Of a stretch of DNA of 37,084 nt, positions 11,500 to 35,992 are shown piece by piece. The DNA is taken from IMG/VR virus record IMGVR_UViG_3300032225_000155, positions 1-37,084 of that record; one strand, 5' to 3'. Each line of letters begins with the position of its first letter. The first letter of the stretch is position 1. Both the position numbers and the translations under genes were made by a program. The notes beneath the pieces are model-generated. The model saw nothing but the letters and a program-made list of their open reading frames with translations. It had not been told where the DNA came from and made no database searches. Source of the stretch: a virus. Lineage: Duplodnaviria; Caudoviricetes.

Positions 11500-13641
11500 T
11501 TATCTTTGAAAGCTAGCTAATGGCGGACGATTTGTTGAAGATGTAGTTGTTACTCCAAGACTGCTATTTAATTGATTTGGATCAAATTGAGTCATCTTTA
11601 ACAATGGCCTTAGTTCTGGAGATAGGTTATTCATTGCAAATTTTGCAGCATCAACTTCCATCTGTCCGGGATTGTCTTTATATTTTGCATACAAAGGCTT
11701 ACCGGGCTTAGCGTTGTCTTTAATGTGCTGCAAACTCTGAGTCAGTAAAGTATTATAACGTTCCTGAGCCATTCCAGTTAGTTGCATATCTTTATAAGAC
11801 TGGGTATTTTCACGGCTCGCGCCAGCAGCGGCTAGTTGTGCATTTTTCATATCTACTTGTGCTTGCAATTTAAACAAATCTCCAGCCAATGCTTGGCGGT
11901 TCTTATTGTCAGCAGATATACCTTGCGCATCCATTTGAGAAAGTTGGCGCTTCATTGTGTTAATAGCAGCTATATCGCGCTCATAAGGCGTTAATGCAGC
12001 AAGACCAGAGCGTCCTACGTTAGATGCCAATTGGCTAAACTCATCACCCGGCTGACCGGCAGGAGCATTCATTAGCCCTAAACCAAAACGAGTAAGAGCC
12101 ATTGGATTAATCATAGCTTTTTGCTCTTCAACGCTTTTTCTTAAATCTTCTTTTTCTTTTTTAAGTGCCTCAGATTCTGGTTTCATTTGAGCATATTGCG
12201 CAGCAGCTAATCTTGCATAGGGGCCTTCTTTTGCCATTGCAGCTAAAGCCTCTTTGGTTGCATCTGGTTCCTGAACATCTTCTCCTTTAGCAAAAGAAGC
12301 AATACCGCCTTCAGCCATTTGGGTCATGCTTCCGGTCGGCGCAGCAGCTAAGCCTGCTTGTTGAGGCACGTTTTGTGGCATTGGAAGGCCGGGCTGCATT
12401 GGTTGCATTAGGCTGGCTGCTTGTGGGGCGGCCTGTGGGTTGCTACGGTTATAAGCACGCTCTTGCATTAATCCTTGAGCGTACATATCATCTATTGGGG
12501 TAGATACTGGGCTCTGTGGAACTCTAGCCAATTGATCATCTGAATACATCTTCATTGGCACTGCACCGCCAGTACCCATTTTAATGACGCCGCCGTCCGC
12601 TTTATTAGCCGCGTTATACATTGCGGCCGCGCCCAATCCTGCGGTTCCCAAACCGGCCAACTGAGAAATCTGGCTAGGAGGCGCTTGATACATCTGTGTA
12701 GAAGATTGTTGCATAGGCAGGCCACGCAACATAGAGTTAAGCATACCCAACTGTAAGAACGGATATTGTTGTTCTGTAGCGTAGTTTTGGACAGCTTGAT
12801 TAATAATGTTTTGTTGGTTAGCTTGTTGTAACGCACCCTGCTGCGCTTGGGTTCCAAGAATACTTTGTTGCGCGGCCAATTCTTGACCACCAAGACCAGC
12901 CAATTGATTGGCGTTTTGCATAGCCGCTTGATTGGCCTGTAAACCAAAACCTTGATTTTGGTTGTATTGATTTTGCGCTGCATTAAATGCTTGGTTATAA
13001 CCCTGACCAATTACTTGGTTCATAGCCATATTTTTATTGCGCTGGTTTTCTGCATCCATAATTGCACCGCGGGAACCACCAAATGCGCCGGCTTGCGTAG
13101 CTTGCCCTTGTTGTTGTGTGCCAGTAATATCATATTGACGTTGAATTTCTGCCAAAGCTGGATTTAAGGCGCTTTGCAAGTAGGGATTCATGTAACCACC
13201 GACTTGGTTTTGGAATCCTTGTGCGTTTGCGTTTGCACCCATTCCTAATGCATTGCCAATTCCATAGCCAGTAACTTGTTGTGCCGCACCAAAAGTGCCG
13301 GGGGTTTGAAGATTTGCAGCAGCAGACTGAGCTTGTCTTTGCAACGGACTAAAACCGGCAACGTAATCTGTAGGGTTATTGCTATAAGGCGTATAGGCAT
13401 TAAACCCAGTCATAGATGGGTTATAGATTTGTGCTTGTGCAGCATTAAGCATATTCTCTACATATGGCTGTGCATACTCAGGAATATTCGTATTTTGTAC
13501 TGTAGTTTGAGTTGGTTGTGGTGCTGGTGAGCCTCCGCCTCCGCCGCCGCCATAGATTCGTCCTCCGCCTACTTTATTGCGGGTAACAGAATCCCCTAGG
13601 GATTCACCTAAAGCGTACAGTTGGCGTTTTGAATAATTCAT
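11500..13641 (-). CDS. Putative ejection (DNA pilot-like) internal virion protein
   Basis: Leader plus poly-Gly, NIPEYAQPY, YMNPY, AGAFGGSR motifs, Q/N/A-rich low complexity, hydrophobic LAGLGTAGLGAAAMY segment. Located between GNAT and giant protein. Confidence 0.7.
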   Translation of the reverse strand: MNYSKRQLYALGESLGDSVTRNKVGGGRIYGGGGGGGSPAPQPTQTTVQNTNIPEYAQPYVENMLNAAQAQIYNPSMTGFNAYTPYSNNPTDYVAGFSPLQRQAQSAAANLQTPGTFGAAQQVTGYGIGNALGMGANANAQGFQNQVGGYMNPYLQSALNPALAEIQRQYDITGTQQQGQATQAGAFGGSRGAIMDAENQRNKNMAMNQVIGQGYNQAFNAAQNQYNQNQGFGLQANQAAMQNANQLAGLGGQELAAQQSILGTQAQQGALQQANQQNIINQAVQNYATEQQYPFLQLGMLNSMLRGLPMQQSSTQMYQAPPSQISQLAGLGTAGLGAAAMYNAANKADGGVIKMGTGGAVPMKMYSDDQLARVPQSPVSTPIDDMYAQGLMQERAYNRSNPQAAPQAASLMQPMQPGLPMPQNVPQQAGLAAAPTGSMTQMAEGGIASFAKGEDVQEPDATKEALAAMAKEGPYARLAAAQYAQMKPESEALKKEKEDLRKSVEEQKAMINPMALTRFGLGLMNAPAGQPGDEFSQLASNVGRSGLAALTPYERDIAAINTMKRQLSQMDAQGISADNKNRQALAGDLFKLQAQVDMKNAQLAAAGASRENTQSYKDMQLTGMAQERYNTLLTQSLQHIKDNAKPGKPLYAKYKDNPGQMEVDAAKFAMNNLSPELRPLLKMTQFDPNQLNSSLGVTTTSSTNRPPLASFQR

Positions 13642-13649: not shown

Positions 13650-14096
13650 TTACAACATCTTTGAAAATACTTTATCTGTCATCTTGTATCCCAAGTACTC
13701 AAACAACTTTGAATTGTCTAAATGCACTTTTGTGTGCATCACAATTCGTTTAACTCCTCGTTCTTTAAGTACTTTTTCAGCATACTTAAACAACATAATT
13801 CCTACTCTGCCTTTGCGAAAACTTTTAGTCACAAAGTACAAATCTTCTATTGCCGTCATACAAGACTTATAATGAAGATGAGGGGTTACTATAAAAATAA
13901 TATAACCAATTAACTGCTCATCATTTCTACAAGTAATGCACCGCAGCATTCCTGCCTGTGCCATCCTTTTATAAGCCTCATAATCAGGCTCATAAGAAAA
14001 TTCTTTTGTTACACATAACTCTTCATAATGCTCCGGAAAGAGTTTTTCAAACTCATCTACAAACTTAAAAACATCCACATCTTCGTAAATAATCAT
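13650..14096 (-). CDS. GNAT-family acyltransferase
   Basis: LIGYIIF, EDLYFVTKSFRKGRVGIMLFKYAE (acetyl-CoA motif A), LFEYLGYK. Confidence 0.85.
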   Translation of the reverse strand: MIIYEDVDVFKFVDEFEKLFPEHYEELCVTKEFSYEPDYEAYKRMAQAGMLRCITCRNDEQLIGYIIFIVTPHLHYKSCMTAIEDLYFVTKSFRKGRVGIMLFKYAEKVLKERGVKRIVMHTKVHLDNSKLFEYLGYKMTDKVFSKML

Positions 14097-16174
14097 GCTG
14101 GTAAATGTTTATATGCTTTCGTGTCTGCTGCAATATTCTTCGTCTTGGCTCTTTTTGCTTTAATGCGATCCATCATGGCATATAAGCGTTTAGCTCCGGC
14201 ATCTGTAGATCCGTTACCAATTTCAGAAACAATACGGGCTGGTATTACAAACTCTCCGGTGGCTAATCTTGCCGGTTGTTTGCCGCCAATTGTAGCAGGG
14301 ATGGAATCAGAAACGCCATCTCCGGGGCCTTGAAGCAAACGGCCACCATCAGAATAATCACCTAAATGACCACCACCTGCATAACCCATTAAACCGCCAG
14401 CAGCGTTTGCAACAGTACTATGATAAAAACTATCTGCAGCTGCATTTGCAGCATCAGCTGCGCGCCTTGTTTCTTCTGATTGCGCTACTTGCTCTGCTAT
14501 CGCTAATTCATTAGCTTTATAAGCTGGGGATCCATACATTCTTAATGGATCAATTGCATACCCTTGGACGGGGGTGGCTGTTCTAGTTGGAATTGGAATG
14601 CTTTCATAATTCTGTATAGATGGAGATTGAATGCCTTGAGAAGGTGCTTGTGCATAATCTACATATTGAGGTTGATATATATGCCCTCGCATACTGCCTT
14701 GTGGGTTTGTATATGCGAATGTACTAGGCGCAGAATCTTTCTTTGCGGCTCCCATTGCAACTCCGCCAAAGTCATAACGAGCTACACCACCATTAGCCAT
14801 AGCCATTAAACCGCCTTCTTTAGCTTCAGTAGAGGACTCTTGGGCAATAGCTTGTTTAGCTCTTTGCTCTGCAATCATTTGAGCCGGGTCAGTACTAATA
14901 GATCCCAGTACATTTTGCTGTGGCAATCCTTTAGAAAGTCTTACTCGGCTAGAGTTAGATAGCATTTCTAACATTTTACGGGCGCGGCTAGCTGGGTCTA
15001 AACGGCGCAGTTCAGGCTCATCTGGTTCAATTTCAACTGGTCTATTCTGAGCTTCTAATGCTTTGCGTTTTGTTGCCATTTCTATGCCGCGCTCTACTTC
15101 ACCAACACCTTCAACCATACTGCCGTAATCTGGAGATCCTTTATAACTTGCAATGCCACCAGAGGCCATCATCTTATCATTCATTAAGCCGCCACTAGCC
15201 GACCCTATTGGGCTATATGGGCTAGCAGCATAGTTAGAATAAGTAGGCCTATAAGCTGGGTTAGGTTGTGCAGGCATGGAAGCGTTAAACATAGGACTGC
15301 CATTTGCATCTCGTGGAATTTGTTTCATTCCAAAAGGATTTTTTTGTTGTGTTTGTACAGGATTATTAGGGGGTTGTGGACCAAATTCTTTTTTGGCTGC
15401 CAATCCTAATGGAAGAGCTACACCAGCTGCTGCATAAGGATTTGCCATCACTGCATTTCCAATCGCAGGCCCACTTGTTAAGCCTTGCGAAAGCCCAGCC
15501 CTAGCCAATTCTCCAGTGCTCATATTAGCGGCATTTGCTACAGTAGGAAGACCCATGTTAGCATTTGCCATGCCAGCATTTTTTACTGCTTCTGCAGCAT
15601 TAGCATCGGTCAAGTTAGCAGTCATATTAGTAATTTGACCTTCTGTCAAATTAGGCATACTACTAATTTGTGATTTGGCAATATCCGAGGCAGTCTGTTG
15701 CGCAGTTTCTTGCGCAGTCATTCTTGTTGCTTCTGTTACTGCTTGTTGTTTAGCAAATTCTTGCGCAGCTTGATTTCCACCTTCTTGCGCAGCAGCATTT
15801 GCAGTTGCTGCCGCTCCTGCTTCAGCTATACCAGAGGCCAAATTACCACCAGACCAAGTACCCAAACCAGCCATAAGACCTTGTGTAAGGCTTCCTGTAA
15901 TAGCATAGTCAGCTGCACCTACACCAGCTGCAATTAAAGGTAAGAATTCAACTTGACCAGTAGCTACGGCTAAAGCACCCAATGCCATAGGCAGTACGGT
16001 ACTTAACATTCCCGCTTCTGGAAGGCCGGTTTTTGGGTTAATAGTTAAAGATTTTCCTTGGCTCTCTGCAAGTTTTTGCATTGCAGCAAGCTCTTTAGAA
16101 GTCATGTGGACTAAATGCGTGTCTTCTCCACGGCCTTGCGCGGCTAAATGATTGGCAGCATGGACTAAACTCAT
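14093..16174 (-). CDS. Putative internal virion/ejection protein
   Basis: N-terminal GRGEDTHLVHM..TINPKTGLPEA, hydrophobic Gly/Ala segment, multiple xxxGG motifs, C-terminal GPGDGVSDSIPA..RLATGEFVIPA domain. Confidence 0.7.
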   Translation of the reverse strand: MSLVHAANHLAAQGRGEDTHLVHMTSKELAAMQKLAESQGKSLTINPKTGLPEAGMLSTVLPMALGALAVATGQVEFLPLIAAGVGAADYAITGSLTQGLMAGLGTWSGGNLASGIAEAGAAATANAAAQEGGNQAAQEFAKQQAVTEATRMTAQETAQQTASDIAKSQISSMPNLTEGQITNMTANLTDANAAEAVKNAGMANANMGLPTVANAANMSTGELARAGLSQGLTSGPAIGNAVMANPYAAAGVALPLGLAAKKEFGPQPPNNPVQTQQKNPFGMKQIPRDANGSPMFNASMPAQPNPAYRPTYSNYAASPYSPIGSASGGLMNDKMMASGGIASYKGSPDYGSMVEGVGEVERGIEMATKRKALEAQNRPVEIEPDEPELRRLDPASRARKMLEMLSNSSRVRLSKGLPQQNVLGSISTDPAQMIAEQRAKQAIAQESSTEAKEGGLMAMANGGVARYDFGGVAMGAAKKDSAPSTFAYTNPQGSMRGHIYQPQYVDYAQAPSQGIQSPSIQNYESIPIPTRTATPVQGYAIDPLRMYGSPAYKANELAIAEQVAQSEETRRAADAANAAADSFYHSTVANAAGGLMGYAGGGHLGDYSDGGRLLQGPGDGVSDSIPATIGGKQPARLATGEFVIPARIVSEIGNGSTDAGAKRLYAMMDRIKAKRAKTKNIAADTKAYKHLPA

Positions 16175-22372: not shown

Positions 22373-23157
22373 TATAGAAGGCCCATTTCTTTGCGAATTT
22401 TAGTGGCACTAATGTCGGTTATTGATTTATCAAAAGTTTCTTGCTCAATCTTGTAACCTACATCTCTGCCGTAAGTAATGTTGGTGATATTAGGAACTAC
22501 CTGTATCTCGTACTGACCTTGGAATAGCGGGTCTAAATCACGCTTAATATTAGATTTTACTTGTTCTATGGCAAAAGGGTTTGACCCTTGCCAGCCCTGA
22601 CAATCACGAATTTGAATAACTACTTGACCTGTCTTGGCAATAGCCCGTTCAAACAATGCTCTGTGTCCTTCGTGCCAAGGTTGCCATCTGCCAAGCATCT
22701 GTACTGTTTCTTTCTGCCAATCAAAGGTAGGTCTGCGCTTGTTCTCAATGATATGATTACCAATAAATTCAGCCCATTTATCGCAGTTCTGCTCCGTAAC
22801 ACGAAAGTCATAAACCTCTGGCGGGATAAAGGCTTTGTTGGTATTTTCAAACCTTCCAGCATCAATAGTATCCATCCAGATAGTCCAGTCGGCTTTGAAG
22901 TTATTACGCATCTCAATTAATGGTGCTACAAAGTCGCAGATAACATAATCACCGCCAGCTTCTAATGCAAAATCAGCCATGCGTAAAGATTGGCGGATAC
23001 GCCCAGCATCAGAGAAGTCCCAGTCGTTATACTTCTTACGCACTTCGTCTGCATTAAACCATGCTACCTGAGCATTAAGCGCTAAATACTTTTTTAATGC
23101 TTGCGCTAGGTAAGTCTTACCTGAACCCGGCAAACCCATAATAAGTATTTTTTTCAT
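22372..23157 (-). CDS. Adenylylsulfate (APS) kinase-like domain fused to an HxGH nucleotidyltransferase
   Basis: N-half: ILIMGLPGSGKT, NADEVR, DFSDAGRIRQ, VICDFVAP (CysC-like). C-half: GRWQPWHEGH, SNPF, ISATKIR. Confidence 0.8.
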   Translation of the reverse strand: MKKILIMGLPGSGKTYLAQALKKYLALNAQVAWFNADEVRKKYNDWDFSDAGRIRQSLRMADFALEAGGDYVICDFVAPLIEMRNNFKADWTIWMDTIDAGRFENTNKAFIPPEVYDFRVTEQNCDKWAEFIGNHIIENKRRPTFDWQKETVQMLGRWQPWHEGHRALFERAIAKTGQVVIQIRDCQGWQGSNPFAIEQVKSNIKRDLDPLFQGQYEIQVVPNITNITYGRDVGYKIEQETFDKSITDISATKIRKEMGLL

Positions 23158-23348
23158 AGTTTATTCCACACTCTTTCATGTATCCAATAAAGCGCAATTT
23201 TTGTCATTATCTCTGTAAACGCAATGCCCGTTGCTACCATCAATGTACCTGATATTACCCAGCTAATTATAAAAGTATCAATAGTTCCTACAACTCTCCA
23301 AGATATAGCCTTTACTAAGCTACGGTATGGACTATCCTTGGAGTGCAT
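23154..23348 (-). CDS. DUF2061-like small membrane protein
   Basis: RSLVKAISWRVVGTIDTFIISW..ALYWIHERVW; ATGA-type 4-nt overlap with the APS kinase gene start. Confidence 0.8.
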   Translation of the reverse strand: MHSKDSPYRSLVKAISWRVVGTIDTFIISWVISGTLMVATGIAFTEIMTKIALYWIHERVWNKL

Positions 23349-23718
23349 CTAGCTGGTCATGTGTTGTACAAGCATCAATAGCAGCTTGTTTTGGTGCAAT
23401 ACCATCTTTAGCAGCTTGTAGTGCGGCTGGGTTATAAGTAGATGGGTCTGCGGCCTGCTGTTTAAATAACATATTAAATGCCATTCCAGCTTGCTGCTTC
23501 ATGTTTTCTTTGCGTTCAACCACGGTTATATCTGCAACGCCGTAAACAATCTCTACAGGGTCTTTAGTCAAATCAAAGGTGTGTGCTGTGTAGTGTTGAC
23601 GATTTGCAATGATGGCAGGTCTTACTTCAATAGCGTGCTTCCAGCCCGGTCTGCCGTCTGGCAAAGTATCCCAAACATCTTTAACTTCACCGTTTTCAAT
23701 GCGTACATATAAACTCAT
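23332..23718 (-). CDS. Hypothetical protein (possible fibre assembly chaperone)
   Basis: Coupled ORF; YVRIENGEV N-terminus and AAIDACTTHDQLDAL C-terminus resemble small fibre-associated proteins. Function is inferred. Confidence 0.6.
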   Translation of the reverse strand: MSLYVRIENGEVKDVWDTLPDGRPGWKHAIEVRPAIIANRQHYTAHTFDLTKDPVEIVYGVADITVVERKENMKQQAGMAFNMLFKQQAADPSTYNPAALQAAKDGIAPKQAAIDACTTHDQLDALQG

Positions 23719-25421
23719 TTAATTCTCCTTGCTTGTTCTTTAAATTCATCAGTTATTTTAGCTAATGGGGCACCCCAATCACCAAATTTCTCTTGTCTAA
23801 ACAGCCTAACATTACGATACCAGATGCTTGTGTTCTTACCGTCTGCCCATAAATAATAAGGCAATACAGGACTAATAATCCATGTTTCCTTACCCATTGC
23901 TGCGGCTAAGTGGGCTACAGAAGTGCAAGAACTAATAACCTTGTCCACGCCCTCAATTACCGCCTTGGTGTGTAGCCAAGTATCTAGGCAAGGTTTTTGC
24001 ACATGGTCAGGAATATTATCAGTTCCAACATCTCTTTGCAAACTAATTAATTCTGCTGGTATTGTAAATAATGGTGCGGGGTCAAATATCCGATTGTGCT
24101 CATGCTCAAAGCGTGGGTTGCCTTGCCAGCGTAGCCCAATCTTGCCGTTAGGTTTAATTGTTTTGCAAGGAATATAAGGTGCATTGTTGACTGTTAAAAA
24201 GCTAAGATAGCCTGACATACCTAATACATGGTAGTCGTGATAGACACCACCTGCGGCTCTAGATTCAACTACTGCAGAAACTCCATCCACTAGCATCATT
24301 AACCCAGCTAATTCAGCCATACAGGAAACTACACAGACACCACCACGGCTGACAATTTCTCTTGCCCACCTAGCGCTATGAATTTGGTCGCCCCTACCAC
24401 CTTCTAGTACCAATAAAACAACCTCGCCATTTAAAGGTCTGCCATCATACCTTGGCATTGCAGATGGGTTAGGATTACCAAAGACTTCCTCGTTACGACC
24501 TCTATCTAATAACTCAAAGCCTTCTTTTAGGTTGCCATGTCTGAGTGCGTACCAACCACGATTAAAAGCGGCTCGGTCATCTTGCGGTCTTGTTTCTAAA
24601 AGAATCTTACACATTGCCTCAGAAGTCTCAAACTCGCCACGCATCGCAGCCTCTACTTGAAAATCAAGCACATCTTTTTTAGGTTCTGTTTCGCCAAGCC
24701 AAAACTTAGGTGCGTGAAAACGATATTCAAATTCGCCCAATACATCTTTAGCAGATGTGTTTGAGTTTTTTAGTTTTGGTTTAACATCATGCAACCCAGC
24801 AACACCCCAAGCGTTCTCGTCATCCTCTGCAACTGATTTACCGTCAATATTATTAAAATCATGGGCAAACGGTTCAAGGTTCCAAAACGTTTCTATCTTG
24901 GCAACCACGGTTTTTGGGTCTGACATTAACTCATCGTAGTCAACAAACAAAATGTTTTCTGGATGTTCTGTGTAACCTTCTAGTAATGAGGCATAAGAAC
25001 CCTTAAGGTGTCCAATTAACTGCCCATTACAAAACTCAGCAAGACTTTCAGGTTTTGCAATCTTGGCAAATGAAGCTGCACAAGTAGCTACATCTCTAAC
25101 AGTAGCCACAATTCTAACTGGGGACTCAAGAACCTCACCCATAGTCTTTTGAATTTGTGGCGTTACCCAACCCCTAGACTTGTCAACCGTAATCTTACCG
25201 TCTTTACGAACAGGTATTAACTTCCTAAGAGTTTCATATAAATGTTCATTAGTTTGATTTTGTGCTTTAGTTGTAGGATTGTTTTCCCACGACTGCACAA
25301 TAGAACCAAATATATCAATAAGTCCAGAGGTAGGCGTTACGTGAATGTCATTACGCTGGTTTAGCAAAGCTGCTAAAACTGTTGAACCTGAGCGTGGAAG
25401 TCCAGATAGAAAGTACATCAT
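23715..25421 (-). CDS. Sulfotransferase - TPR - GT-B (GT9-like) glycosyltransferase fusion
   Basis: 5'-PSB loop FLSGLPRSGST, DKSRGW, 3'-PB TVRDV..CAASF, VDYDELMSDP; TPR-like AAFNRGWYALRHG; EGGRGDQI, IGLRWQGNP, DKVISSCTSVAHLAAAMGKETW, WY.NVRLFRQ..GDW. Confidence 0.85.
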   Translation of the reverse strand: MMYFLSGLPRSGSTVLAALLNQRNDIHVTPTSGLIDIFGSIVQSWENNPTTKAQNQTNEHLYETLRKLIPVRKDGKITVDKSRGWVTPQIQKTMGEVLESPVRIVATVRDVATCAASFAKIAKPESLAEFCNGQLIGHLKGSYASLLEGYTEHPENILFVDYDELMSDPKTVVAKIETFWNLEPFAHDFNNIDGKSVAEDDENAWGVAGLHDVKPKLKNSNTSAKDVLGEFEYRFHAPKFWLGETEPKKDVLDFQVEAAMRGEFETSEAMCKILLETRPQDDRAAFNRGWYALRHGNLKEGFELLDRGRNEEVFGNPNPSAMPRYDGRPLNGEVVLLVLEGGRGDQIHSARWAREIVSRGGVCVVSCMAELAGLMMLVDGVSAVVESRAAGGVYHDYHVLGMSGYLSFLTVNNAPYIPCKTIKPNGKIGLRWQGNPRFEHEHNRIFDPAPLFTIPAELISLQRDVGTDNIPDHVQKPCLDTWLHTKAVIEGVDKVISSCTSVAHLAAAMGKETWIISPVLPYYLWADGKNTSIWYRNVRLFRQEKFGDWGAPLAKITDEFKEQARRIK

Positions 25422-27955
25422 GGTATTTTAATTGCTCCCATGCCAACACCACAAGGGCTATTTCTTACTGTTCTCCAAGTGGTTAATGCACCAACTTGTA
25501 CTGGAGAAGAATAATTTGTAGTGTTACCTAAGCCTAGCTGACCATAATCATTTCTACCCCATGACCATAATGTGTTATCTGCTTTAAGAACAACTGCTGT
25601 ATTATCTCCTATTGATGCTTTTGAATTTAACCAATTAGTTAACGCACCTAGTTGAACTGGAGAATTGTAAGAAGTAGTATTTCCTAGCCCTAATCCACCC
25701 TGACTGCCATTACCCCAAACCCAAGCCGTTCCGTCAGTTTTAGTAGCAAAAGCAGTATTAGGTGCAGAAAAGCTACCATTGCCTTGCCATACATTTGACC
25801 AGTTTGTATCAGAGCCGATTTGAACAGGTGAAGAATAGTTGGTAGCGTTTCCAGTTCCAAGAACTGAATCAACATTTCCACCCCATCCCCATAAAGTTCC
25901 ATCAGTTTTAATTGCTTGCATTACTTGGTCAGCAGTATCGGTTTTTTTAGCAATAGTAATTATTTTCCAATTTGTACCTGAGCCAACCTGAACAGGAGAG
26001 GAACGATTTGTAGTATCCCCTAATCCTAGCTGACCTCCGTTATTTTGCCCCCATACCCACAAGGTTCCGTCAGTTTTAATAGCCCCAAAAAACAATCCAC
26101 CACCACTAACTGTTTTCCAATTAGTTAAAGCACCAACTTGAACAGGGGAATTATTAGTGGCATTACCCGCTAAAGACCCAAACGAATTCTTTCCCCATAC
26201 CCATAATGTGCCGTCAGTTTTTACTGCCGCAGTAGCTTGTGTTGTACTTACACCGCCACCAGCAACAACTGACCAATCAGTTAAAGTTCCAACTTGAGTT
26301 GGAGAGGAACGGTCAGTAAAGTCACCAAGACCTAAAGAACCTCCAAAATAAGCATTACCAACGAAACCATTGCTACCCCAAGCCCACAATTGACCTGTGC
26401 TAGTAATGCCAAACATATTTTGATAGCCACCAGATAGTTTGGTCCAAGTTGTTAAAGAACCTACTTGAACTGGGGATGAACGATTTGCGGTACTGCCTGA
26501 GCCTAATTGACCAAGCCTGCCACGACCCCAAGTCCAAAGTTGACCGCCAGCAAAAGCGGTTACCGTAGCTGTATTAGCGGAGTTAGCGGATGCTGAACCA
26601 AAACTATTTATACCTGTTACTACGCAGCGCAACGTGGAACCAATATCCGCAGGAACAACAAAATAAGTGTTAGATGTTGCACCGCTAATGTCGCTAGTGC
26701 CTCGTTGCCACTGGAATGTAAAGCTAGATGGGAAATTGCTCCATGTTCCGTAACTAGAAGTTAATGTCTGCCCATCTTCTGCTGTTCCTGAAACGACAGG
26801 TACTGTTAAATTAACTGGCGCAGAAGTTTCTACTCCTTGTGTGGCTTCAGCATTGTTAGTACCACCAGCTACTTTTAACCAAGTAGTTAATGTTCCAACT
26901 TGAACAGGAGAATTGCGGTTAATCAAATCATTTAAACCTAATTGACCGTAATTTGAATTTAAACCCCAAGCCCACAATGTGCCATCATTTTTTATACAAA
27001 AAGAAAAATTATCACCAGCCGCAGGTGTTACCCAACTAGTCAAAGCACCAATTTGAACAGGAGAAGAACGAGCATATACAGCACCCAGACCTAATGCACC
27101 ATAACCAGACCGACCCCATGCCCACAATGTGCCATCTGTTTTGACACACAAAGCATGAGTTCTACCAGCGGCAGGAGTTGCCCAATTAGTTAATGAACCA
27201 ATTTGTTTTGGTGAAGAATAATTGGTTGTATTTCCAAGACCTAATGCCCCAATATAATAATTATATCCCCAAGACCAAAGTGTTCCGTCTGTTTTAGTGC
27301 ATAAAGAAAAATTATTATTATTGTTTCGTCTTATGCTGGCAGCAGGTTTTGCCCAATCAGTTAATGCACCAACTTGTACTGGAGAAGAATAATTTGTACG
27401 GTTACCTAAGCCTAGCTGACCAAGACCGTTATAACCCCACGAAAAAAGTTTACCGTTGTCAACCGCCAACATACATCTAACGCCAGCAGAAACTTCTGTC
27501 CAAGTTGTTGATGAACCTAATTGTACGGGTGAACGAAGGGTAGTTGTATTTCCTTGACCATTTGCGCCGTAGCCACCTTCACCCCAAACCCATAGCGTTT
27601 TATCAGTTTTAATGCACGCAGAATTGTAACAACCAGCGCTTGGTTTTTCCCAATTAGTTAATGACCCAATTTGTTTTGGAGAAGAATAATTGGTTGTATT
27701 TCCAAGACCTAAATTACCGTTAAAGCCAAAACCCCAAGACCAAAGAGTTCCGTTTGTTTTAGTGGACAAAGTAAAAAAAGCACCAGCATCGGGGGTTGCC
27801 CAAGTAGTTAAGGCTCCAACTTGGACAGGTGATGATCTATTAGTAATATTCCCTAATCCTAATTCACCTTTAGTGTTGCCACCCCAACTAAATAATTTAA
27901 ATTGTGCAGCAACCGCACTAACTTTAGCGAATAAAAAATTCCTAGAACCAAACAT
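25418..27955 (-). CDS. RCC1/BLIP-II repeat protein: 7 blades + Ig-like domain + 7 blades
   Basis: 14 repeats of KTDGTLWxWGxNxxGxLGLGxTTNxSSPVQVGxLTxW; central APVNLTVPVVSG..FTFQWQR..TYFVVPADIGSTLRCVVT Ig-like domain (~26570-26822). Confidence 0.9.
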   Translation of the reverse strand: MFGSRNFLFAKVSAVAAQFKLFSWGGNTKGELGLGNITNRSSPVQVGALTTWATPDAGAFFTLSTKTNGTLWSWGFGFNGNLGLGNTTNYSSPKQIGSLTNWEKPSAGCYNSACIKTDKTLWVWGEGGYGANGQGNTTTLRSPVQLGSSTTWTEVSAGVRCMLAVDNGKLFSWGYNGLGQLGLGNRTNYSSPVQVGALTDWAKPAASIRRNNNNNFSLCTKTDGTLWSWGYNYYIGALGLGNTTNYSSPKQIGSLTNWATPAAGRTHALCVKTDGTLWAWGRSGYGALGLGAVYARSSPVQIGALTSWVTPAAGDNFSFCIKNDGTLWAWGLNSNYGQLGLNDLINRNSPVQVGTLTTWLKVAGGTNNAEATQGVETSAPVNLTVPVVSGTAEDGQTLTSSYGTWSNFPSSFTFQWQRGTSDISGATSNTYFVVPADIGSTLRCVVTGINSFGSASANSANTATVTAFAGGQLWTWGRGRLGQLGSGSTANRSSPVQVGSLTTWTKLSGGYQNMFGITSTGQLWAWGSNGFVGNAYFGGSLGLGDFTDRSSPTQVGTLTDWSVVAGGGVSTTQATAAVKTDGTLWVWGKNSFGSLAGNATNNSPVQVGALTNWKTVSGGGLFFGAIKTDGTLWVWGQNNGGQLGLGDTTNRSSPVQVGSGTNWKIITIAKKTDTADQVMQAIKTDGTLWGWGGNVDSVLGTGNATNYSSPVQIGSDTNWSNVWQGNGSFSAPNTAFATKTDGTAWVWGNGSQGGLGLGNTTSYNSPVQLGALTNWLNSKASIGDNTAVVLKADNTLWSWGRNDYGQLGLGNTTNYSSPVQVGALTTWRTVRNSPCGVGMGAIKIP
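25482..27422. repeat. 63-bp direct repeat pair (25482-25544 and 27360-27422)
   Basis: GTTAATGCACCAACTTGTACTGGAGAAGAATAATTTGTA(GT/CG)GTTACCTAAGCCTAGCTGACCA, 2 mismatches. Confidence 0.9.
27181..27712. repeat. 64-bp direct repeat pair (27181-27244 and 27649-27712)
   Basis: CCCAATTAGTTAATGA(A/C)CCAATTTGTTTTGG(T/A)GAAGAATAATTGGTTGTATTTCCAAGACCTAA, 2 synonymous mismatches. Confidence 0.9.
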
Positions 27956-29953: not shown

Positions 29954-30379
29954 TTAATTAGAAAAACGAATAATAGCATTTGAAGCATTATCCGTGGGAA
30001 ACGTTATTGTAAAACTTGTTGTGGGGGTTTTGTCCGCCCCAAAATCTAAAACCGCCACTGCTGCATTAGTCGTACTATTATAAATTAAAGCACCCCTAAC
30101 CGTAAAGGAGGCCGGATTCCAAATTACTGTATTGAATGACAAATATGCCGTATAGTCATCAACCTGTGGGGGTATAACCGTTAAAGTCTTGCCACCTGCC
30201 GTATATCCAGTGCCTACTACTTCGCCTGTAGTTGTATAAGCTAAAGTTGATTGGTTTAAGTTGGCATTAGCGGTATATAAGGCAATTTTATAGGTATACG
30301 GGGTTCCAACCGCAAAGTTCTCTAAAGCACTTAAACAGTTTTTCTTGAAGATTGTGCATTGACCTTGGGCAATTGTCAT
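29954..30379 (-). CDS. Virion structural protein
   Basis: YKIALYT, GEVVGTGYTAGG, RGALIYN..AVAVLDFGADK, FTITFP motifs. Confidence 0.7.
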   Translation of the reverse strand: MTIAQGQCTIFKKNCLSALENFAVGTPYTYKIALYTANANLNQSTLAYTTTGEVVGTGYTAGGKTLTVIPPQVDDYTAYLSFNTVIWNPASFTVRGALIYNSTTNAAVAVLDFGADKTPTTSFTITFPTDNASNAIIRFSN

Positions 30380-31299
30380 GGTTTAACCTGTCCAATTCTG
30401 TATTGTCCGTCTCTGTAAGCATCGCCGCGCTCAAGACCAGAACCAAGGCGGTTCAATTGACTCATAGCCTCGGTGTATTTTTCTTCGTAGTATTTAACTA
30501 GATCAGCCTCACCTTTCATAAACAGCATGGCTTCCCGCATTGCACCATAAAACAAGACTGGGTCGTAGTTATCACCAAGCCAACTAGTGCCTGCAGTGTT
30601 ATTAACTCCATTTAGAACAACAGAAAAACCAGAACCAGAACCACCAATATTTGCATTAGAACAAGATAATTGGTCGCCGGCAACATAGAAGTTTCCGTTA
30701 TTTTTAATTGTTACGGCAGTTACTGTCTGTCCAGAAACGGTTATATTTGCAGTTGCACCAGAACCTGACCCGCCTGTTAAAGGCACATTGGTGTAGTTTC
30801 CATTGGTATATAAAGAGCCTCCAGTGATGGCACCAATGCTAGAAATAGCTCCTTGGACAATGGATACTGGATAGTAAAAATAATGCAGTTCTACAGAATA
30901 TCCGCTATCTGGAGTCGGTCCTACAATAAAAGATAGCTCATTGGCATTACTATACTGAGAACCAAACAAAGCATAATACCTAGGAAATCCAGTAGATGTT
31001 GGCGTTGGATAAGCCTCACGAATAAAGTTTACGTCTTTGTTGAGTAAATAAGAATATGCTCCAGTAGTACCGTCAATAACCGCTAGTGAATAGGTGGACA
31101 AATAATCATCGGGGCAAGATAAGTAATTATTACTAGACGTAAGTGTACCCATCACATTTTTGCGTAACGATGGGATTTGGACTGAATTGTATATACGGTC
31201 TTCCGCCTCTTGGACAAACCGAGAAATGTTCCCTACGAATAAAGACTCTGTATTCTCAGAATAGTCCTGTATTGCTTGGTACAGTTGTACGTAGTTCAT
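30376..31299 (-). CDS. Head-tail adaptor / tail tubular A-like protein with beta insert
   Basis: MNYVQLYQAIQDY..FVQEAEDRI, G.PRYYA, GPTPD..YSVELHY, WLGDNY..LFYGAMREA; Gly/Thr-rich insert before the final helices. Confidence 0.65.
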   Translation of the reverse strand: MNYVQLYQAIQDYSENTESLFVGNISRFVQEAEDRIYNSVQIPSLRKNVMGTLTSSNNYLSCPDDYLSTYSLAVIDGTTGAYSYLLNKDVNFIREAYPTPTSTGFPRYYALFGSQYSNANELSFIVGPTPDSGYSVELHYFYYPVSIVQGAISSIGAITGGSLYTNGNYTNVPLTGGSGSGATANITVSGQTVTAVTIKNNGNFYVAGDQLSCSNANIGGSGSGFSVVLNGVNNTAGTSWLGDNYDPVLFYGAMREAMLFMKGEADLVKYYEEKYTEAMSQLNRLGSGLERGDAYRDGQYRIGQVKP

Positions 31300-31313: not shown

Positions 31314-31574
31314 CTAGCCCATTGGCCCACGAGATGTAAAGCCTTTAGTTGCAGCGCCTGATCCACGTTGTTTCATGCCGTCAGTTTTTACTACATCATT
31401 TTGGCTTTTAAAAGTTCCAGCTACAGACATTTTAATTTGATCTACGCCGTTGCCGGGCTTAGTAACACAATCTTTAACTGAAGTCATAACTTTTCCATCC
31501 ATAGTGTGCGGTGCAGCATATACGGCAGCGGAGCCTACTTCTTTGCCGCCTTGTTTCATAGAAAATTTAGCCAT
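31314..31574 (-). CDS. Small basic protein
   Basis: Tightly packed ORF; MKQGG motif, C-terminal RGSGAATKG..RGPMG. Confidence 0.75.
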   Translation of the reverse strand: MAKFSMKQGGKEVGSAAVYAAPHTMDGKVMTSVKDCVTKPGNGVDQIKMSVAGTFKSQNDVVKTDGMKQRGSGAATKGFTSRGPMG

Positions 31575-31576: not shown

Positions 31577-31765
31577 TTATCTACCCCTTTGAGCAGCACA
31601 CTTAGCCAAGTTGCGTCCCATAGCTTTCATATTAGCGTTAGTCTTACCAACAGTGTGCTTGATCGGACCATTCATTGTTTTAGCTGTAGGGCCTGAATCA
31701 CCTAAGTTTTTACCTATAGTTTTTCCTTTGGACTCAATGCCATTGGCGCCTTTTTTAAATGTCAT
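31577..31765 (-). CDS. Small basic protein with tag-like motif ANGIESKGKT
   Basis: AGGAG SD; Lys-rich; MKAMGRNLAK C-terminus. Confidence 0.75.
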   Translation of the reverse strand: MTFKKGANGIESKGKTIGKNLGDSGPTAKTMNGPIKHTVGKTNANMKAMGRNLAKCAAQRGR

Positions 31766-31774: not shown

Positions 31775-32203
31775 CTAATTAACTGTTAATGTTACTGTAC
31801 CTACTTGCCCTATTGCAATCAAGTAATTTGGCGTTAAAACCGTGTCAAAACTACTTGCACCACCTACTGGAGCCCAACCCCACTGATACACCCTGCTACC
31901 TTCAGCTTGGTATCCGTTTTGGTCTATATCCACTCCGTTACCATATTGGGTTTGTAAGCCCGTCTGTCCTGATGCGTAATAACTGTTATCTGGCCTTGGT
32001 TCCCGCACTGCCTGTGGGTCATTGACCGGATACATCCCTAATTGTAGCTGAGGTTGGTCTGGTTCCCAACACTCAGGGCATACTTTAATGCTGACCTGCT
32101 TGGTCTTAATGGTGAGCTTTTTGAGCTCTACTAGTTTATATCGTTGCCCACATCGGTCACATTCCGCAATAGCGTACTTACCAGAACTATACTGACTAGG
32201 CAC
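31775..32203 (-). CDS. CxxC...CxxC zinc-ribbon protein (head-completion region)
   Basis: ECDRCG..VCPECWE, PQLQLG, DPQAVREPRPD; GTG start nested in the upstream gene's tail. Confidence 0.75.
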   Translation of the reverse strand: MPSQYSSGKYAIAECDRCGQRYKLVELKKLTIKTKQVSIKVCPECWEPDQPQLQLGMYPVNDPQAVREPRPDNSYYASGQTGLQTQYGNGVDIDQNGYQAEGSRVYQWGWAPVGGASSFDTVLTPNYLIAIGQVGTVTLTVN

Positions 32204-32624
32204 GGGTTTTACCCCTTATACAACAACCATCCGCACGTTCTGATGCTGATTTAACTTTACCGCCTTTTTTATATCCTTTAGCTTTACCAGCTTCTAATGC
32301 TTGTTTTTCTTCGTCATCCATAATTTCATGAATTTCTTCAGAACGTCTATTTAACTCTTTTGCAGAATTATAAATGGGCCATTTGCCTTTATTAATTTCA
32401 CTACGAAAATACTCTTTTGCTGTATCTTCATCTCTAATTTTACCCGCAATATATCCCGGAATAGATGCAAATTTACCTTTATGTGGGCCAGATTCCATTT
32501 CAACGCCAGTACTGTATACAGTAACGGGGCGGCCTTTTTCATCTCTACCAACATTATTAAAAGTAACATTATCCCTATGATACTGAACTATGTTTTTTTC
32601 TTGAGGTGTTAAATCTTTAGGCAT
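32196..32624 (-). CDS. Hypothetical protein with shared C-terminal tag (copy 1)
   Basis: About 115-aa unique region followed by YKKGGKVKSASERADGCCIRGKTRA; GAGG SD. Confidence 0.8.
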   Translation of the reverse strand: MPKDLTPQEKNIVQYHRDNVTFNNVGRDEKGRPVTVYSTGVEMESGPHKGKFASIPGYIAGKIRDEDTAKEYFRSEINKGKWPIYNSAKELNRRSEEIHEIMDDEEKQALEAGKAKGYKKGGKVKSASERADGCCIRGKTRA

Positions 32625-32626
32625 GA

Positions 32627-33583
32627 TTACCTCGCATAAAACAAATTACGCGGAACAAATCTCAGTGGAGCAGTTTCTCTATCTTCTTGGGATGCTAAGG
32701 TAAACTGTTCTTCATAGTCCGCCTTTAATCCCATAACTCTTTGTAAGTCCATATTAGGCAACTTAACGCTTAACATATAAGATAATCCCGCTACAAAACA
32801 ATTAATAAAGCGGAATGGAATATCTTGAATATTGACACCATCTCCAGCATCTTGCAGCCTACGCATACGCCAGTAAATTAACATATATGGTCCACCGCCA
32901 GCATCAGGAGTAGGCCAGACGTTTACACAAGGCAAGTTTTGGATATATACAGAGGCGCCAGCAGCATGAGTTGTTGCTGTAGTTCCATTTTGTCCGCGCC
33001 AGCAGTTTAATAACTGATTTGTAGACGTATTAATATTGGTGTATCCAATGGTTTCATTATCAATTTTTACGAATCCGGTAGAGCCTAAGCCGGCTACACT
33101 GGTTAAATTAATAGTTGTATCCGTAACTGATACCGATGGAGTAGTTGTGCCGGCGGCAACAGTGGTAGTTGCAAGGCCATTAGTCTGGGCAGTTTGGCGG
33201 TTATACCATACCTGAATTGGGCGACCAGTGGTTAGTTTATTAGGTATAGTAGAGTAAGTAGACTCAGATATACGAGACAAATTAATGTCAGTTTGGTTAG
33301 ATGTACTTGCATTGCTTGTCCGTGTGACTAAATCTAAAATATCAATTGTATCAGCTGGAACAGGATAAACACCCTGATTAGTAACCAGAGGGATTATGCA
33401 CTCTTCAATAGTCCAAAGGTTAATACCACGGTTAGCCCACTCAATGGTCATAAGATTGATAGAGCGCCTTGCAGTACGCATATCATATCCAGAACGTAAC
33501 TGCGAGCCACAACGCTCAAAGGCTTCTTCAATAAGCTCAGAGAGGTCTAGGTTAAACGTAGTTTGTCCGGATGTAACAGCCAT
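32627..33583 (-). CDS. Head-tail connector / tail tubular A-like protein with beta insert
   Basis: LIEEAFERCG..ARRSINLM..EWANRG.NLW, YSTIPNK..GRP, VWPTPD, DIPFRF..GLSY.L; insert ..VKIDNETIGYT..RGQNGTTATTH... Confidence 0.65.
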   Translation of the reverse strand: MAVTSGQTTFNLDLSELIEEAFERCGSQLRSGYDMRTARRSINLMTIEWANRGINLWTIEECIIPLVTNQGVYPVPADTIDILDLVTRTSNASTSNQTDINLSRISESTYSTIPNKLTTGRPIQVWYNRQTAQTNGLATTTVAAGTTTPSVSVTDTTINLTSVAGLGSTGFVKIDNETIGYTNINTSTNQLLNCWRGQNGTTATTHAAGASVYIQNLPCVNVWPTPDAGGGPYMLIYWRMRRLQDAGDGVNIQDIPFRFINCFVAGLSYMLSVKLPNMDLQRVMGLKADYEEQFTLASQEDRETAPLRFVPRNLFYAR

Positions 33584-33780
33584 TATTTATTCGCTTTTAA
33601 TATTGATATTTCTTCGCGTAATTTCTTTATTTCTGCATCACGTTCATCTAATTTGCGTATTAGACTAAAGTTTGTATCTGCCCACATTCCCATATCTATA
33701 GTGCGTTCTTTGTGGTCGTCTAACATCATTTTGTACAACCGCTCAGATGCTTCAATCTGGGTTTGTATAAAGTCTTTCAC
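33583..33780 (-). CDS. Small coiled-coil hypothetical protein
   Basis: Coupled at both ends (4-nt and 1-nt overlaps); heptad C-terminus. Confidence 0.7.
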   Translation of the reverse strand: MKDFIQTQIEASERLYKMMLDDHKERTIDMGMWADTNFSLIRKLDERDAEIKKLREEISILKANK

Positions 33781-33959
33781 TTTTTCTTAAGTCCTTTTAG
33801 GGTTTCAGCTAATCTAGCTCTTTGGCCCATTTTTCCGGGTTTCTTTGCCGCTGCTGCTAATTTCTTAGCTGGGATCTTTTCCCCAGATTTAACACCTAAC
33901 TCTTTGCGCAATGCGCCGGGTTTTTTAATTGCACTAGCAATCCAATTTTTAGTAGCCAT
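33777..33959 (-). CDS. Small highly basic protein
   Basis: NWIASAIKKPGALRKELGV..RARLAETLK; coupled ORF. Confidence 0.8.
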   Translation of the reverse strand: MATKNWIASAIKKPGALRKELGVKSGEKIPAKKLAAAAKKPGKMGQRARLAETLKGLKKK

Positions 33960-34393
33960 TATTTTTTCTTTGCAGTTTTAGCGGACTTAATAAAATCCTC
34001 TTTAGTAGGCGCGCCTTTAGAACCAACTTTACGCATTCTTTCACCAGAGCCAGCTGCAATACGTGCTTGCTTTTTATGAATATTTTCGTAAAGTCCACCA
34101 GAAGCCATTTTTTTAGGTTTTTTTCCATTTTCTTTCATAGATATTGCAGTGGCTGCTTGTTGGGCAGCTCCTCCTTTAGCAAATAAATCAGACGCTTTTA
34201 AAGACCCCGGTTTTGCAAGTAATTTTCTAACTACAGCAGACGGGGTTCCGGCTTTACTAACTGTAACATTACCACCAATTCTACCGCCTCTTGCGTAAAC
34301 TTCTACGTCTTGCGGATCATCTTTACGTTGAATAATTTTTTTGCCCGGCATTTTGCTAGGTTTAATATCGCCCATTCCACGACTTGCTCTCAT
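33959..34393 (-). CDS. Basic modular protein with YARGG/FAKGG/MASGG junctions
   Basis: ATG overlaps the upstream TGA; four short segments separated by xAxGG. Confidence 0.8.
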   Translation of the reverse strand: MRASRGMGDIKPSKMPGKKIIQRKDDPQDVEVYARGGRIGGNVTVSKAGTPSAVVRKLLAKPGSLKASDLFAKGGAAQQAATAISMKENGKKPKKMASGGLYENIHKKQARIAAGSGERMRKVGSKGAPTKEDFIKSAKTAKKK

Positions 34394-34734
34394 GCTCTTG
34401 TCTTTCCTCTAATGCAGCAACCGTCTGCTCTGGCTGATGCTGATTTAACTTTACCACCCTTTGAGTAGTTTTTAGTAATATCACGGTTCATTTTGCCTGT
34501 ACCCATGCCGCCGCCACCTACGCCACCAACTCTGGTATTTGCTTCTACTTTTTTAAACTCATTACGAGAGGCGCGTTCTTCCTTGCCTTGATCAATATAC
34601 TTTTGAAGGCGTTCTGCAAAGTCCTTTTGAGTTGCTGGATCCGCATTAGGCATACCACGCTTTATGCGCTCTGCAGTTGATTTACCATCTCCTGTAGGGT
34701 CCATTGGATCAATTGGATTAATTGCATTAGGCAC
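34390..34734 (-). CDS. Hypothetical protein with shared C-terminal tag (copy 2)
   Basis: Start revised from 34767 to GTG at 34734 (MPNAINP..), preceded by AGAGGA SD inside the upstream gene; ends YSKGGKVKSASARADGCCIRGKTRA. Confidence 0.8.
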   Translation of the reverse strand: MPNAINPIDPMDPTGDGKSTAERIKRGMPNADPATQKDFAERLQKYIDQGKEERASRNEFKKVEANTRVGGVGGGGMGTGKMNRDITKNYSKGGKVKSASARADGCCIRGKTRA

Positions 34735-35002
34735 GAGTTTTTCCTCTAATACAGCAACCATCAGCACGAGCTGAGGCAGACTTAATAGAGCCGCCTTTAG
34801 CTTTTTTCTCCACTGGTAGTTCTGATGCTTCTTTAGCGTTCATAACGTTTTTAACTGCTTTTGGGAGGTTTTCTACTGCGTAATTTTTAACAGCTTTAGC
34901 GCCTTTAACAACGGCCTCACCAATGCGCTTAGGAAGCTCTAAATCTTCTTTGTTTTGCGCTGCATCAATATCTGCTACGATTTGGTCAGGTGATTTTGGC
35001 AT
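34727..35002 (-). CDS. Hypothetical protein with shared C-terminal tag (copy 3)
   Basis: Ends KAKGGSIKSASARADGCCIRGKTRA; starts immediately after the upstream stop. Confidence 0.8.
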   Translation of the reverse strand: MPKSPDQIVADIDAAQNKEDLELPKRIGEAVVKGAKAVKNYAVENLPKAVKNVMNAKEASELPVEKKAKGGSIKSASARADGCCIRGKTRA

Positions 35003-35003
35003 A

Positions 35004-35498
35004 TTAGCACTTTCCGCCCATATTCATTTTAATTTCTCTACCTTTAGTTTTGCCTTTAACAGCGCAGCCATCAGCAGACTTATGCCCAGCAGATAGGCCA
35101 CCACCGGCCATTTTCTTCATAGCCATGCCGCCTTTTTTAAGGGCTAACTTAGTACCTTTGCCGCCTTTGTGTTCTTGGGCATCGTGCTGTTTGAAAGCTT
35201 TTTTAATCATAGCTTTGTCTTGCGCTTTGTCCATTTTCATGTCTTCTTTAGCGTCAGTCATGCCGCCTTTTTTCATATAGCCCATTTTGTTACGCACGGC
35301 TGTAGGTAACTTGGCCAATCCGGGATTCTTTTTTGAGTCTACTGGTTTCATAGTTCCACCTTCTTTAAATTTTCTGCCTTTGTCGGCTTGGTTAAAATCT
35401 TTTCCCACAGATTGTGGAACTCCTACTTTTTTAGCAAATGCAGGATTATGTGCAATTGCTGCCATAAAATTATGTTGTTTTTTAGATACGCTTGGCAT
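35004..35498 (-). CDS. Basic modular protein with six xxGG junctions and tag variant SADGCAVKGKTKG
   Basis: FKEGG, MKKGG, HKGG, LKKGG, MAGGG, MNMGG; Lys/Met-rich; ends in Cys. Confidence 0.8.
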   Translation of the reverse strand: MPSVSKKQHNFMAAIAHNPAFAKKVGVPQSVGKDFNQADKGRKFKEGGTMKPVDSKKNPGLAKLPTAVRNKMGYMKKGGMTDAKEDMKMDKAQDKAMIKKAFKQHDAQEHKGGKGTKLALKKGGMAMKKMAGGGLSAGHKSADGCAVKGKTKGREIKMNMGGKC

Positions 35499-35501: not shown

Positions 35502-35744
35502 TTATTTCCGAATAAGCTCGTCAATTTTGCTTTCAAGCTTGTTAAACCTTGCGTCCATATGTTCAACAATCCGTTCAACTTCTGCTTTAGTAACGTTATC
35601 ACGGGCAACTTCTTCTCTTGTCTTATTTAACAAAATATCAATGCGTTTTAAGTCATTAAACTTTTCGTGCATCATATAGCCAATTAGGGCTACAAATATA
35701 GTTAACCCACCAGTCCAAAGTTCCATCATATCTAACATTTCCAC
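35502..35744 (-). CDS. Membrane-anchored coiled-coil protein (exact start uncertain)
   Basis: N-terminal TM segment LWTGGLTIFVALIGYMM, LLNKTREEVAR, RFNKLESKID. Confidence 0.75.
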   Translation of the reverse strand: MEMLDMMELWTGGLTIFVALIGYMMHEKFNDLKRIDILLNKTREEVARDNVTKAEVERIVEHMDARFNKLESKIDELIRK

Positions 35745-35992
35745 CTCGCAAGAGAGGCAGCCTTTCTGGTAGGCTTGCCGTTCTCATCTTTCATTGGACC
35801 TTTAACTCCAGACATACGAGCGCAGAATGACTTCTTGCGAGCGCCACCTTCAGGCTGTGGGGCTTTTAAATTAGAACCTGTAGCTGCATTATATTTAGCT
35901 CTGCCCTTGGCAGTCAAGCCGGCACCTTTAGAGGCCGGTAATTTCTCACCGCGGCCTATTGCTAAAGAAGGGGCTTTCTTTTTGGTTGCCAT
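35732..35992 (-). CDS. Small basic phage protein (DUF6321-like)
   Basis: GLTAKGRAKYN..GSNLKAP..RKKSFCARM..SLARWKC; family name recalled from memory. Confidence 0.7.
   Translation of the reverse strand: MATKKKAPSLAIGRGEKLPASKGAGLTAKGRAKYNAATGSNLKAPQPEGGARKKSFCARMSGVKGPMKDENGKPTRKAASLARWKC

Follow-up and report, generated by a model that had tools for sequence, protein, structure and literature searches.

A portable two-part peptide tag on unrelated small late proteins of HTVC023P-like podophages, a candidate label for docking in the phage head

The stretch of viral DNA analysed here, referred to throughout as the window, is the 37,084-nucleotide IMG/VR record IMGVR_UViG_3300032225_000155 (Duplodnaviria; Caudoviricetes), a 37-kb virus record that is 58% complete and whose minus strand carries all genes around an array of small genes. 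Among its genes are those for two SU10-type adaptors, for a DNA ejection protein and for an LPD38 polyvalent protein, and on its gene content the window is part of an HTVC023P-like podophage, a type whose head and neck genes are homologous to, and in the same order as, those of the window group. The closest annotated relatives of its 318-amino-acid adaptor were found in DSL-LC04, CRP-901/902, HTVC027P/023P, Caulobacter RW-like phages and MinM2 (14 records). Within the array, three minus-strand open reading frames (ORFs; 32196-32624, 34390-34767 and 34727-35002) end in the same peptide of approximately 26 residues, hereafter the tag. A sequence-only reading of the window had described these as three unrelated proteins with a common C-terminal tag, and the peptides were found at the ORF ends exactly as it quoted them, while pairwise scores between the N-terminal parts did not exceed those of shuffled sequences (p 0.96-1.0). 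A hidden Markov model (HMM) of the tag's core motif picked out five window ORFs at 21.6-29.8 bits, the next match in the window reaching only 2.8 bits. Two of the five are the 164- and 62-amino-acid proteins for which variants had been proposed, with an internal and an N-terminal copy, respectively. The proposal that each tag opens with xxKGG stood for the three C-terminal copies (copy 1 has a Phi-KKGG joint) and failed for the 62-amino-acid variant, where no intact xxKGG precedes the core. The second tagged ORF, which the ORF finder starts at 34767, probably begins at GTG 34734 (114 amino acids), behind an AGAGGA formed by codons of the third tag. Public contigs match 32216-32846 and 34426-35181 with zero differences, and the matching run may be the source sample; joints in contigs from relatives at 85% likeness were not counted as evidence for recombination within a genome.

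The level at which the tag is conserved was evaluated from its codons. All of the last 13 residues are identical in copies 1 and 2 while 12 of the 13 codons differ synonymously, as first noticed, and the corresponding differences are 6/13 for copies 1 and 3 and 8/13 for copies 2 and 3. The value of 12/13 is a slightly extreme draw from saturation, with about 4.9 identical codons expected from background usage (P(<=1) = 0.016, best of three pairs). Directly upstream of this stretch, copies 1 and 2 share seven consecutive identical codons, which indicates that the tags are mosaics. Across relatives, codon usage in the tag equals the background, and the frequency of identical codons at same-residue sites was 0.47 for the 237 pairs within loci, compared with 0.415 between loci. 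As synonymous sites are thus near saturation, it is the protein itself that is conserved; with 0 of 182 within-locus pairs at least 90% codon-identical, the earlier claim of selection on the peptide without recent duplication was borne out. Recent duplication or homogenisation of the tags was ruled out by the near-saturated synonymous sites, and a ribosome-binding site was rejected as the cause of conservation, Arg and Gly codons being at background usage with no excess of AGA/AGG. A genome-specific tag dialect found no support (0.39 observed vs 0.32 permuted, p 0.17, 54 pairs). The explanation that the repeat is a feature of DNA or RNA (a recent duplication, a recombination site or a ribosome-binding site), or that the tagged proteins are diverged paralogues, draws on the seven identical codons and on the AGAGGA in tag 3 ahead of the next start; set against the codon results it is very improbable and already largely refuted. 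The tagged proteins are most unlikely to be diverged paralogues, since their N-terminal parts are no closer to one another than shuffled sequences and a folded passenger, described below, has an independent untagged family of its own.

The anatomy of the tag was investigated in 341 distinct proteins from 220 loci and the window, pulled by a pattern requiring G-x3-[RK]-G-[KHR]-T; 137 of the 220 loci came via a DNA pattern in which one Ala is fixed as well, so that part of the core invariance is built in. Two elements were observed, a Phi-x-x-GG joint and the core R-A-D-G-[ICV]-A-x-[RK]-G-K-T-[RK]-G, arranged as Phi-K-x-GG, a short Ser/Ala/Lys linker, the core, usually x-Phi-Phi, and a stop. The GG lies at most 22 residues upstream of the core in 326 of the 341 proteins at a variable distance, and one family accepts an insert of approximately 27 residues between the two, which argues that joint and core are separate elements. 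The core ends five residues before the C-terminus in 138 of the 150 best profile matches and is N-terminal only in the 62-amino-acid type. Its Thr is invariant in the tag alignment, the rows of which were selected by the Thr-requiring pattern. A vicinal CC, once proposed to bind metal or to crosslink, turned out to be sporadic (13/102 tags of adaptor-anchored loci, 16/88, and 1/150 of the top profile matches) and was dropped as a functional feature.

These properties bear on what we regard as the main rival explanation, namely that the core is a small module binding nucleic acid or phosphate that ties its protein to phage DNA, the array then being a set of virion core or DNA-compacting proteins with no protein reader. 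This rival would likewise put the proteins in the virion. The tag part has a median net charge of +7 in 29 residues, the array neighbours are very basic (net +11 to +25), and the motif is found at either end of proteins or inside them. All 150 of the best matches also spell G-x4-G-K-T, in part because of how they were selected; G-x4-G-K-[TS] is the definition of Walker A. Further, the gene matching the 60-amino-acid array protein in a relative (L003:9628-9807) has a weak match to VP2 of archaeal fuselloviruses (PF25632, E 0.015, under cut-off), and fusellovirus VP2 is a DNA-binding virion protein. In contrast, a conserved Asp/Asn/His, together with positions fixed as small or hydrophobic, points to a contact of defined shape and not just to charge, G-R-T, G-H-T and G-L-T variants of the core lose the Walker lysine, a strand-loop-helix context is not predicted, and the basic adaptor PF08789 of PBCV is unmatched. 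On balance we consider DNA binding unlikely, though with appreciable weight. The setting of a P-loop nucleoside triphosphatase, in which the motif would stand between a hydrophobic strand and a helix in a fold with Walker B, is lacking, for the proteins end 2-5 residues past the motif and the region is disordered in the model, with no strand-loop-helix and no Pfam match.

The joint is not restricted to tagged proteins. Array and ejection proteins show an enrichment of Phi-x-x-GG where their modules meet, and the joint occurs without the core in further array proteins as well as in the 693- and 713-amino-acid ejection-module proteins, the former having 4 against 0.19 expected from shuffles. One explanation is that GG is a protease site at which precursors are cut in the head into a conserved basic peptide and a passenger. 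The enrichment at joints and the presence of GG ahead of the core in 326/341 proteins fit such processing; adenovirus core proteins are processed at GG, and T5 pb2 and lambda gpH are cut near the C-terminus, a possible parallel. An S78 protease was, however, not found in five complete genomes, and in genome G001 the one protease-like gene recognised, which lies next to an AAA ATPase in the early region on the opposite strand, encodes a DUF2201 metallopeptidase. No head protease was recognised among the late genes of G001, where an unknown or host protease is possible. Processing at GG is accordingly rated quite improbable. A conserved 149-amino-acid gene (phrog_36003; L003:3821-4270 in G001) stands between the scaffold-like and decoration-like genes; its product was considered as a possible reader or protease, and its model (pLDDT, the predicted local distance difference test, of 72) gave no PDB fold match.

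The relation between tag and passenger was most clearly seen in the 142-amino-acid protein. In a monomer model its residues 1-112 form a block at pLDDT 71-86 and residues 118-142 fall below 50, and the 112-residue domain has 50 near-length and 3 longer homologues. A tree was calculated from 52 homologues of the domain alone, with two short rows left out. All 34 tailed rows fell into one 37-row clade (98/92 support) and the 15 untagged rows outside it; the tail type changes 11 times on the tree, the minimum being 4, and P0035 and P0036, which are 0.009 apart, carry different tails behind the same GG joint. A passenger that bears the full tag in L002, L005, L092 and L106 is followed by a divergent tail, in a post-portal position, in DSL-LC04 (similarity by eye). 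Exchange on the domain tree offers the best evidence for tail and passenger as independent modules and for retention of a tail once the domain is in this context. In line with the earlier notion of interchangeable cargo, labels change passengers and passengers change labels. A gene of the 142-amino-acid type lies directly after the adaptor in 26/26 loci of the phage group, and in 80 adaptor-anchored loci the same slot was empty in 75, held another tagged protein in 3 and held an untagged HNH-like gene (assigned by eye) in 2. In L005, L006 and L007 the slot (L006:10961-11311) is occupied by a different, aromatic-rich protein of 116 amino acids with the same tag and no Pfam or PHROG match. As for the domain itself, His16, Arg94 and His99 are invariant, and it occurs alone, duplicated in longer proteins and, structurally, within large viral proteins, one of them named as a polyvalent protein (Foldseek E 0.002-0.08). 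It had no PDB match (best Z 4.1), no sequence match to a solved structure and only atlas matches <0.9, and is possibly an undescribed enzyme or binding domain.

Passengers are diverse. The 326 N-terminal parts fell into 109 clusters, and 136 passengers from the best 150 profile matches into 116. In these parts K, A, G, E, M and P are abundant while W and C are nearly absent, with a median hydrophobic fraction of 0.143 (321 passengers) vs 0.26-0.38 in 12 control proteins. FoldIndex called 96/133 and 278/321 passengers disordered; as it also miscalls the folded passenger, the hydrophobic fraction was used instead. Pfam was searched with 150 passenger proteins and none reached a family cut-off. 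Most passengers thus look disordered rather than effector-like, and the suggestion that anti-defence effectors are the usual cargo was not upheld.

The spread of the tag was evaluated with a 29-position profile built from it, as the sequence-only reading had suggested, and the fused N-terminal parts were catalogued. The profile matched 8,361 protein clusters (50% identity) at E<=0.001, a number that may include fragments, and 1,094 of them at E<=1e-10; the best 150 were inspected. The DNA pattern was estimated to occur in approximately 4,700 IMG/VR stretches. Of the adaptor-anchored loci spanning the array, 43/43 held 1-4 core-bearing genes in 32 distinct sets, and in 43/43 complete arrays the tagged genes were located between the capsid and adaptor genes. 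In fact, all 11 core matches of four complete genomes lie inside the array block. In GTDB, 24 matches were found on contigs in bins of unrelated phyla (L245-L268); these are probably mis-binned phage DNA, since 20 of the 24 hold markers of the phage module. Among nine named records searched, a clean match was obtained only in the cultured phage MinM2, at the end of a 308-amino-acid gene in the capsid-adaptor interval, and Pag-Yong1 and Pra-JY27, whose records give cyanobacterial hosts, agree with it in length and gene layout. The full tag was seen only in the freshwater branch and in MinM2. The single profile match in Caulobacter phage RW was set aside, as it runs across a stop. A tblastn search of phages with the 26-residue tag returned nothing, although the profile search did pick up MinM2. 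The tag matched no PDB sequence and gave single chance-level rows in Pfam and PHROGs; NCBIfam and PADLOC returned 0 matches to the window proteins, of which the PADLOC result says little as its models cover defence and not anti-defence. No description of the long core was found in the accessible text of the papers searched, the motif letters occurring in unrelated papers only. The tag is real and, as far as searched, undescribed, and is not covered by Pfam, PHROG, NCBIfam or PDB.

Confinement to the head-gene block also bears on the possibility of docking in the infected cell, late in infection, on a protein of the host or of the phage, the tag acting as an adaptor, a decoy or a substrate of a modifying enzyme or protease and the proteins not being packaged. 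The diversity of passengers is as in host-facing genes, a glycosyltransferase-like gene lies beside the array, a GNAT gene is found among the ejection genes, and the core Thr is invariant within the limits of the selection described above. Against this, the array genes are tightly packed and often overlap amid head and neck genes, the glycosyltransferase is missing from some tag-bearing arrays (L061), and the tag did not emerge as a motif of bacteria, the GTDB matches being largely on contigs with phage markers. We therefore regard docking in the cell as improbable.

The reading that we put forward, at just under an even chance, is that the tag would be a head-docking label for loading the head with small basic proteins. 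It is a portable module of two parts, the Phi-x-x-GG joint and the basic core, conserved as protein and swapped between unrelated small late proteins. Unstructured alone, it may fold on a partner, candidates being the capsid, the scaffold or the portal lumen, and dock inside the assembling head such that the fused protein is carried in the virion. The bulk of the passengers would share the capsid with DNA as internal head proteins that are flexible and near-neutral or basic, and the minority that is folded, the 112-residue domain among them, may use the label for delivery into the next cell. The model does not need cleavage at GG. What the sequences show is conservation at the protein level, confinement between capsid and adaptor genes, exchange of tails and passengers at GG, and purifying selection on passengers; the location in the virion, the docking partner and delivery we infer. 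More tentatively, and with some doubt, the widespread freshwater podophage branch may possess a C-terminal head-loading system with a very large, freely recombining stock of passengers, in which one docking peptide serves thousands of protein clusters and passengers change at GG, the mostly disordered proteins forming an internal phase round the genome and folded effectors being captured for injection once they acquire the peptide.

An indirect link to virions comes through other array proteins. The N-terminal module of the 164-amino-acid protein matches PHROGs annotated as virion structural proteins, matches phiKZ gp165.1 with 77% identity over 43 residues, and also matches the N-terminus of 121Q gp51, whose phAPEC6 orthologue gp161c is 93% identical. 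Six peptides of gp161c were detected in virions by mass spectrometry, as stated in the accessible text of the report (PMC7247149). That phiKZ gp165.1 is a virion protein could not be confirmed. This basic module of approximately 45 residues heads virion proteins of 121Q/RaK2-like jumbo phages and is matched by 150 named phage records; it may be a second, N-terminal virion-associated module common to unrelated phage groups.

Several observations weigh against head docking. The evidence for gp161c concerns another module in an unrelated jumbo phage, and no virion proteomics was found for any tag-bearing phage in the accessible text of the papers searched. The core is not on the ejection and polyvalent proteins of four complete genomes, the clearest injected cargo, so the notion of the long tag as a general ejection signal found no support. 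No profile match was obtained in HTVC027P, CRP-901, DSL-LC04 or ct7L0027, the first two being cultured phages that make virions without the tag. As the core is also N-terminal and internal it is not strictly a C-terminal label, and its charge fits DNA binding equally well. Finally, the median ratio of nonsynonymous to synonymous substitution rates of 0.15 (53 pairs), which indicates purifying selection on passengers, is biased low by the choice of pairs with at least 60% identity in local alignments.

Features of the window are collected in Table 1. In complete relatives the genes follow the order terminase, portal, GroES, scaffold-like, 149-amino-acid, decoration-like, major capsid, small-gene array, adaptor, zinc finger, two small genes and adaptor, where the scaffold and decoration labels are putative and given by position. 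The array's 86-amino-acid protein with the R-G-x-G-A-A-x-K-G end may carry a distant, perhaps ancestral, form of the core. Outside the array, the 2,966-amino-acid LPD38 protein differs from the two smaller ejection-module proteins in lacking a strict Phi-x-x-GG joint. Lys-rich array proteins are candidate substrates of the GNAT acetyltransferase encoded between the two ejection-module genes.

Table 1. Positions of tags, array genes and other features in the window
Feature	Position	Strand	Basis
Tag copy 1 (Phi-KKGG joint and core)	32199..32276	-	Profile E 1.2e-15; the copy is itself part of the model
Tag copy 2	34393..34470	-	Sequence, profile
Tag copy 3; Arg-Gly codons form AGAGGA upstream of the next gene's start	34730..34807	-	Sequence, profile
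142-aa tagged protein with a folded, mobile domain in residues 1-112; gene optional, between adaptor and zinc-finger genes	32196..32624	-	Model, homologues, tree
112-residue domain of the 142-aa protein	32289-32624	-	
Tagged protein, probably 114 aa; low-hydrophobicity passenger with Gly run	34390..34734	-	Start GTG 34734
91-aa tagged protein	34727..35002	-	ORF
62-aa basic protein, core motif at N-terminus (residues 6-20)	31577..31765	-	Core HMM 22.6 bits
164-aa basic protein (net +25) with an internal tag at 35037-35114 and several GG joints	35004..35498	-	Core HMM, sequence comparison
Basic module of ~45 residues in the 164-aa protein	35352-35498	-	
144-aa basic protein (net +23), three Phi-x-x-GG joints, core absent	33959..34393	-	Sequence
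60-aa basic protein (net +15) with 67% identity to one module of a protein from HTVC027P	33777..33959	-	Sequence comparison
86-aa protein ending R-G-x-G-A-A-x-K-G, in 43/43 complete arrays	31314..31574	-	Core HMM 0.1 bits; kinship not supported by score
Head-tail adaptor, SU10_adaptor PF24175, inside the array	32627..33583	-	Family match
Second SU10-type adaptor, the array's closing gene	30376..31299	-	Family match
86-aa basic DUF6321 protein, the array's first gene	35732..35992	-	Family match
Accessory block: 261-aa protein with P-loop-like motif at start, 568-aa protein, 845-aa repeat protein	22372-27955	-	Labels by eye
693-aa probable ejection-module protein, 4 Phi-x-x-GG joints, core absent	14093..16174	-	Role assigned by position
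GNAT acetyltransferase gene	13650-14096	-	
713-aa DNA ejection protein (phrog_4287), one strict Phi-x-x-GG, core absent	11500..13641	-	Profile match
2,966-aa LPD38 polyvalent protein	2590-11490	-	Weak GNAT and YkuD matches
aa, amino acids.

Signals that load proteins into capsids are experimentally known for very few phages, and those named in the accessible text of PMC9024508, from T4 and P1, are both N-terminal. If head docking is correct, a C-terminal, exchangeable label in podophages akin to the widespread HTVC023P type would account for an unannotated gene block in 43/43 complete arrays examined, would show a route by which new proteins are recruited into virions and might serve as a packaging tool. 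If DNA binding holds instead, the array would represent an undescribed core-protein system in a tailed phage. The question is open to direct experiment now, as the cultured phage records MinM2, Pag-Yong1 and Pra-JY27 hold the gene.

Among known systems, the PBCV-specific basic adaptor domain PF08789 is a small, basic and mobile C-terminal module on diverse viral proteins; it differs from the tag in sequence, matching 0/76 tags at E<=10 and 0/5 genomes at E<=1. HTVC023P-type podophages and their kin (HTVC027P, CRP-901, DSL-LC04 and MinM2) share the late-gene order and the adaptor family, to the extent covered by the available part of PMC9599517. In HTVC027P the portal is followed by an array of small, basic genes with GG from which the full tag is absent, and DSL-LC04 pairs its related passenger with the divergent tail. 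The crAss001 cargo proteins gp45-gp50 are stored in and ejected by a virion that is also of podophage type; they are large (60-277 kDa), and the accessible part of their description mentions neither a shared loading motif nor cleavage (PMC10172136). The core here is, in contrast, on small proteins and not on large ejection proteins. In T5 pb2 the cut follows R1127 and in lambda gpH it lies in a Gly-rich stretch close to the C-terminus, the catalyst of the latter being unknown according to the accessible text (PMC10038345, PMC12617516). C-terminal cleavage in these two possibly parallels the GG joint only, as both are siphophage tail proteins for which the available portions of the reports (PMC10038345, PMC12617516, PMC10713586) describe no counterpart of the core.

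The closest comparison is to the capsid targeting sequence (CTS) of T4 and the packaging signal of P1 DarB, which are N-terminal and carry proteins into the head, as was demonstrated by reporter fusion according to the part of the source available (PMC9024508). The tag differs from both in being mostly C-terminal, approximately 26 residues long, of two parts and strongly basic. The T4 CTS is removed by the prohead protease; no such enzyme was recognised here in five genomes searched for S78 or among the late genes of G001. Most passengers have a low content of hydrophobic residues. Since position differs, no sequence family is common and no protease was recognised, the tag is not a member of the CTS/DarB group. 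What it has in common with the T4 CTS is one short peptide borne by otherwise unrelated small late proteins and, we infer, the loading of these proteins into the head.

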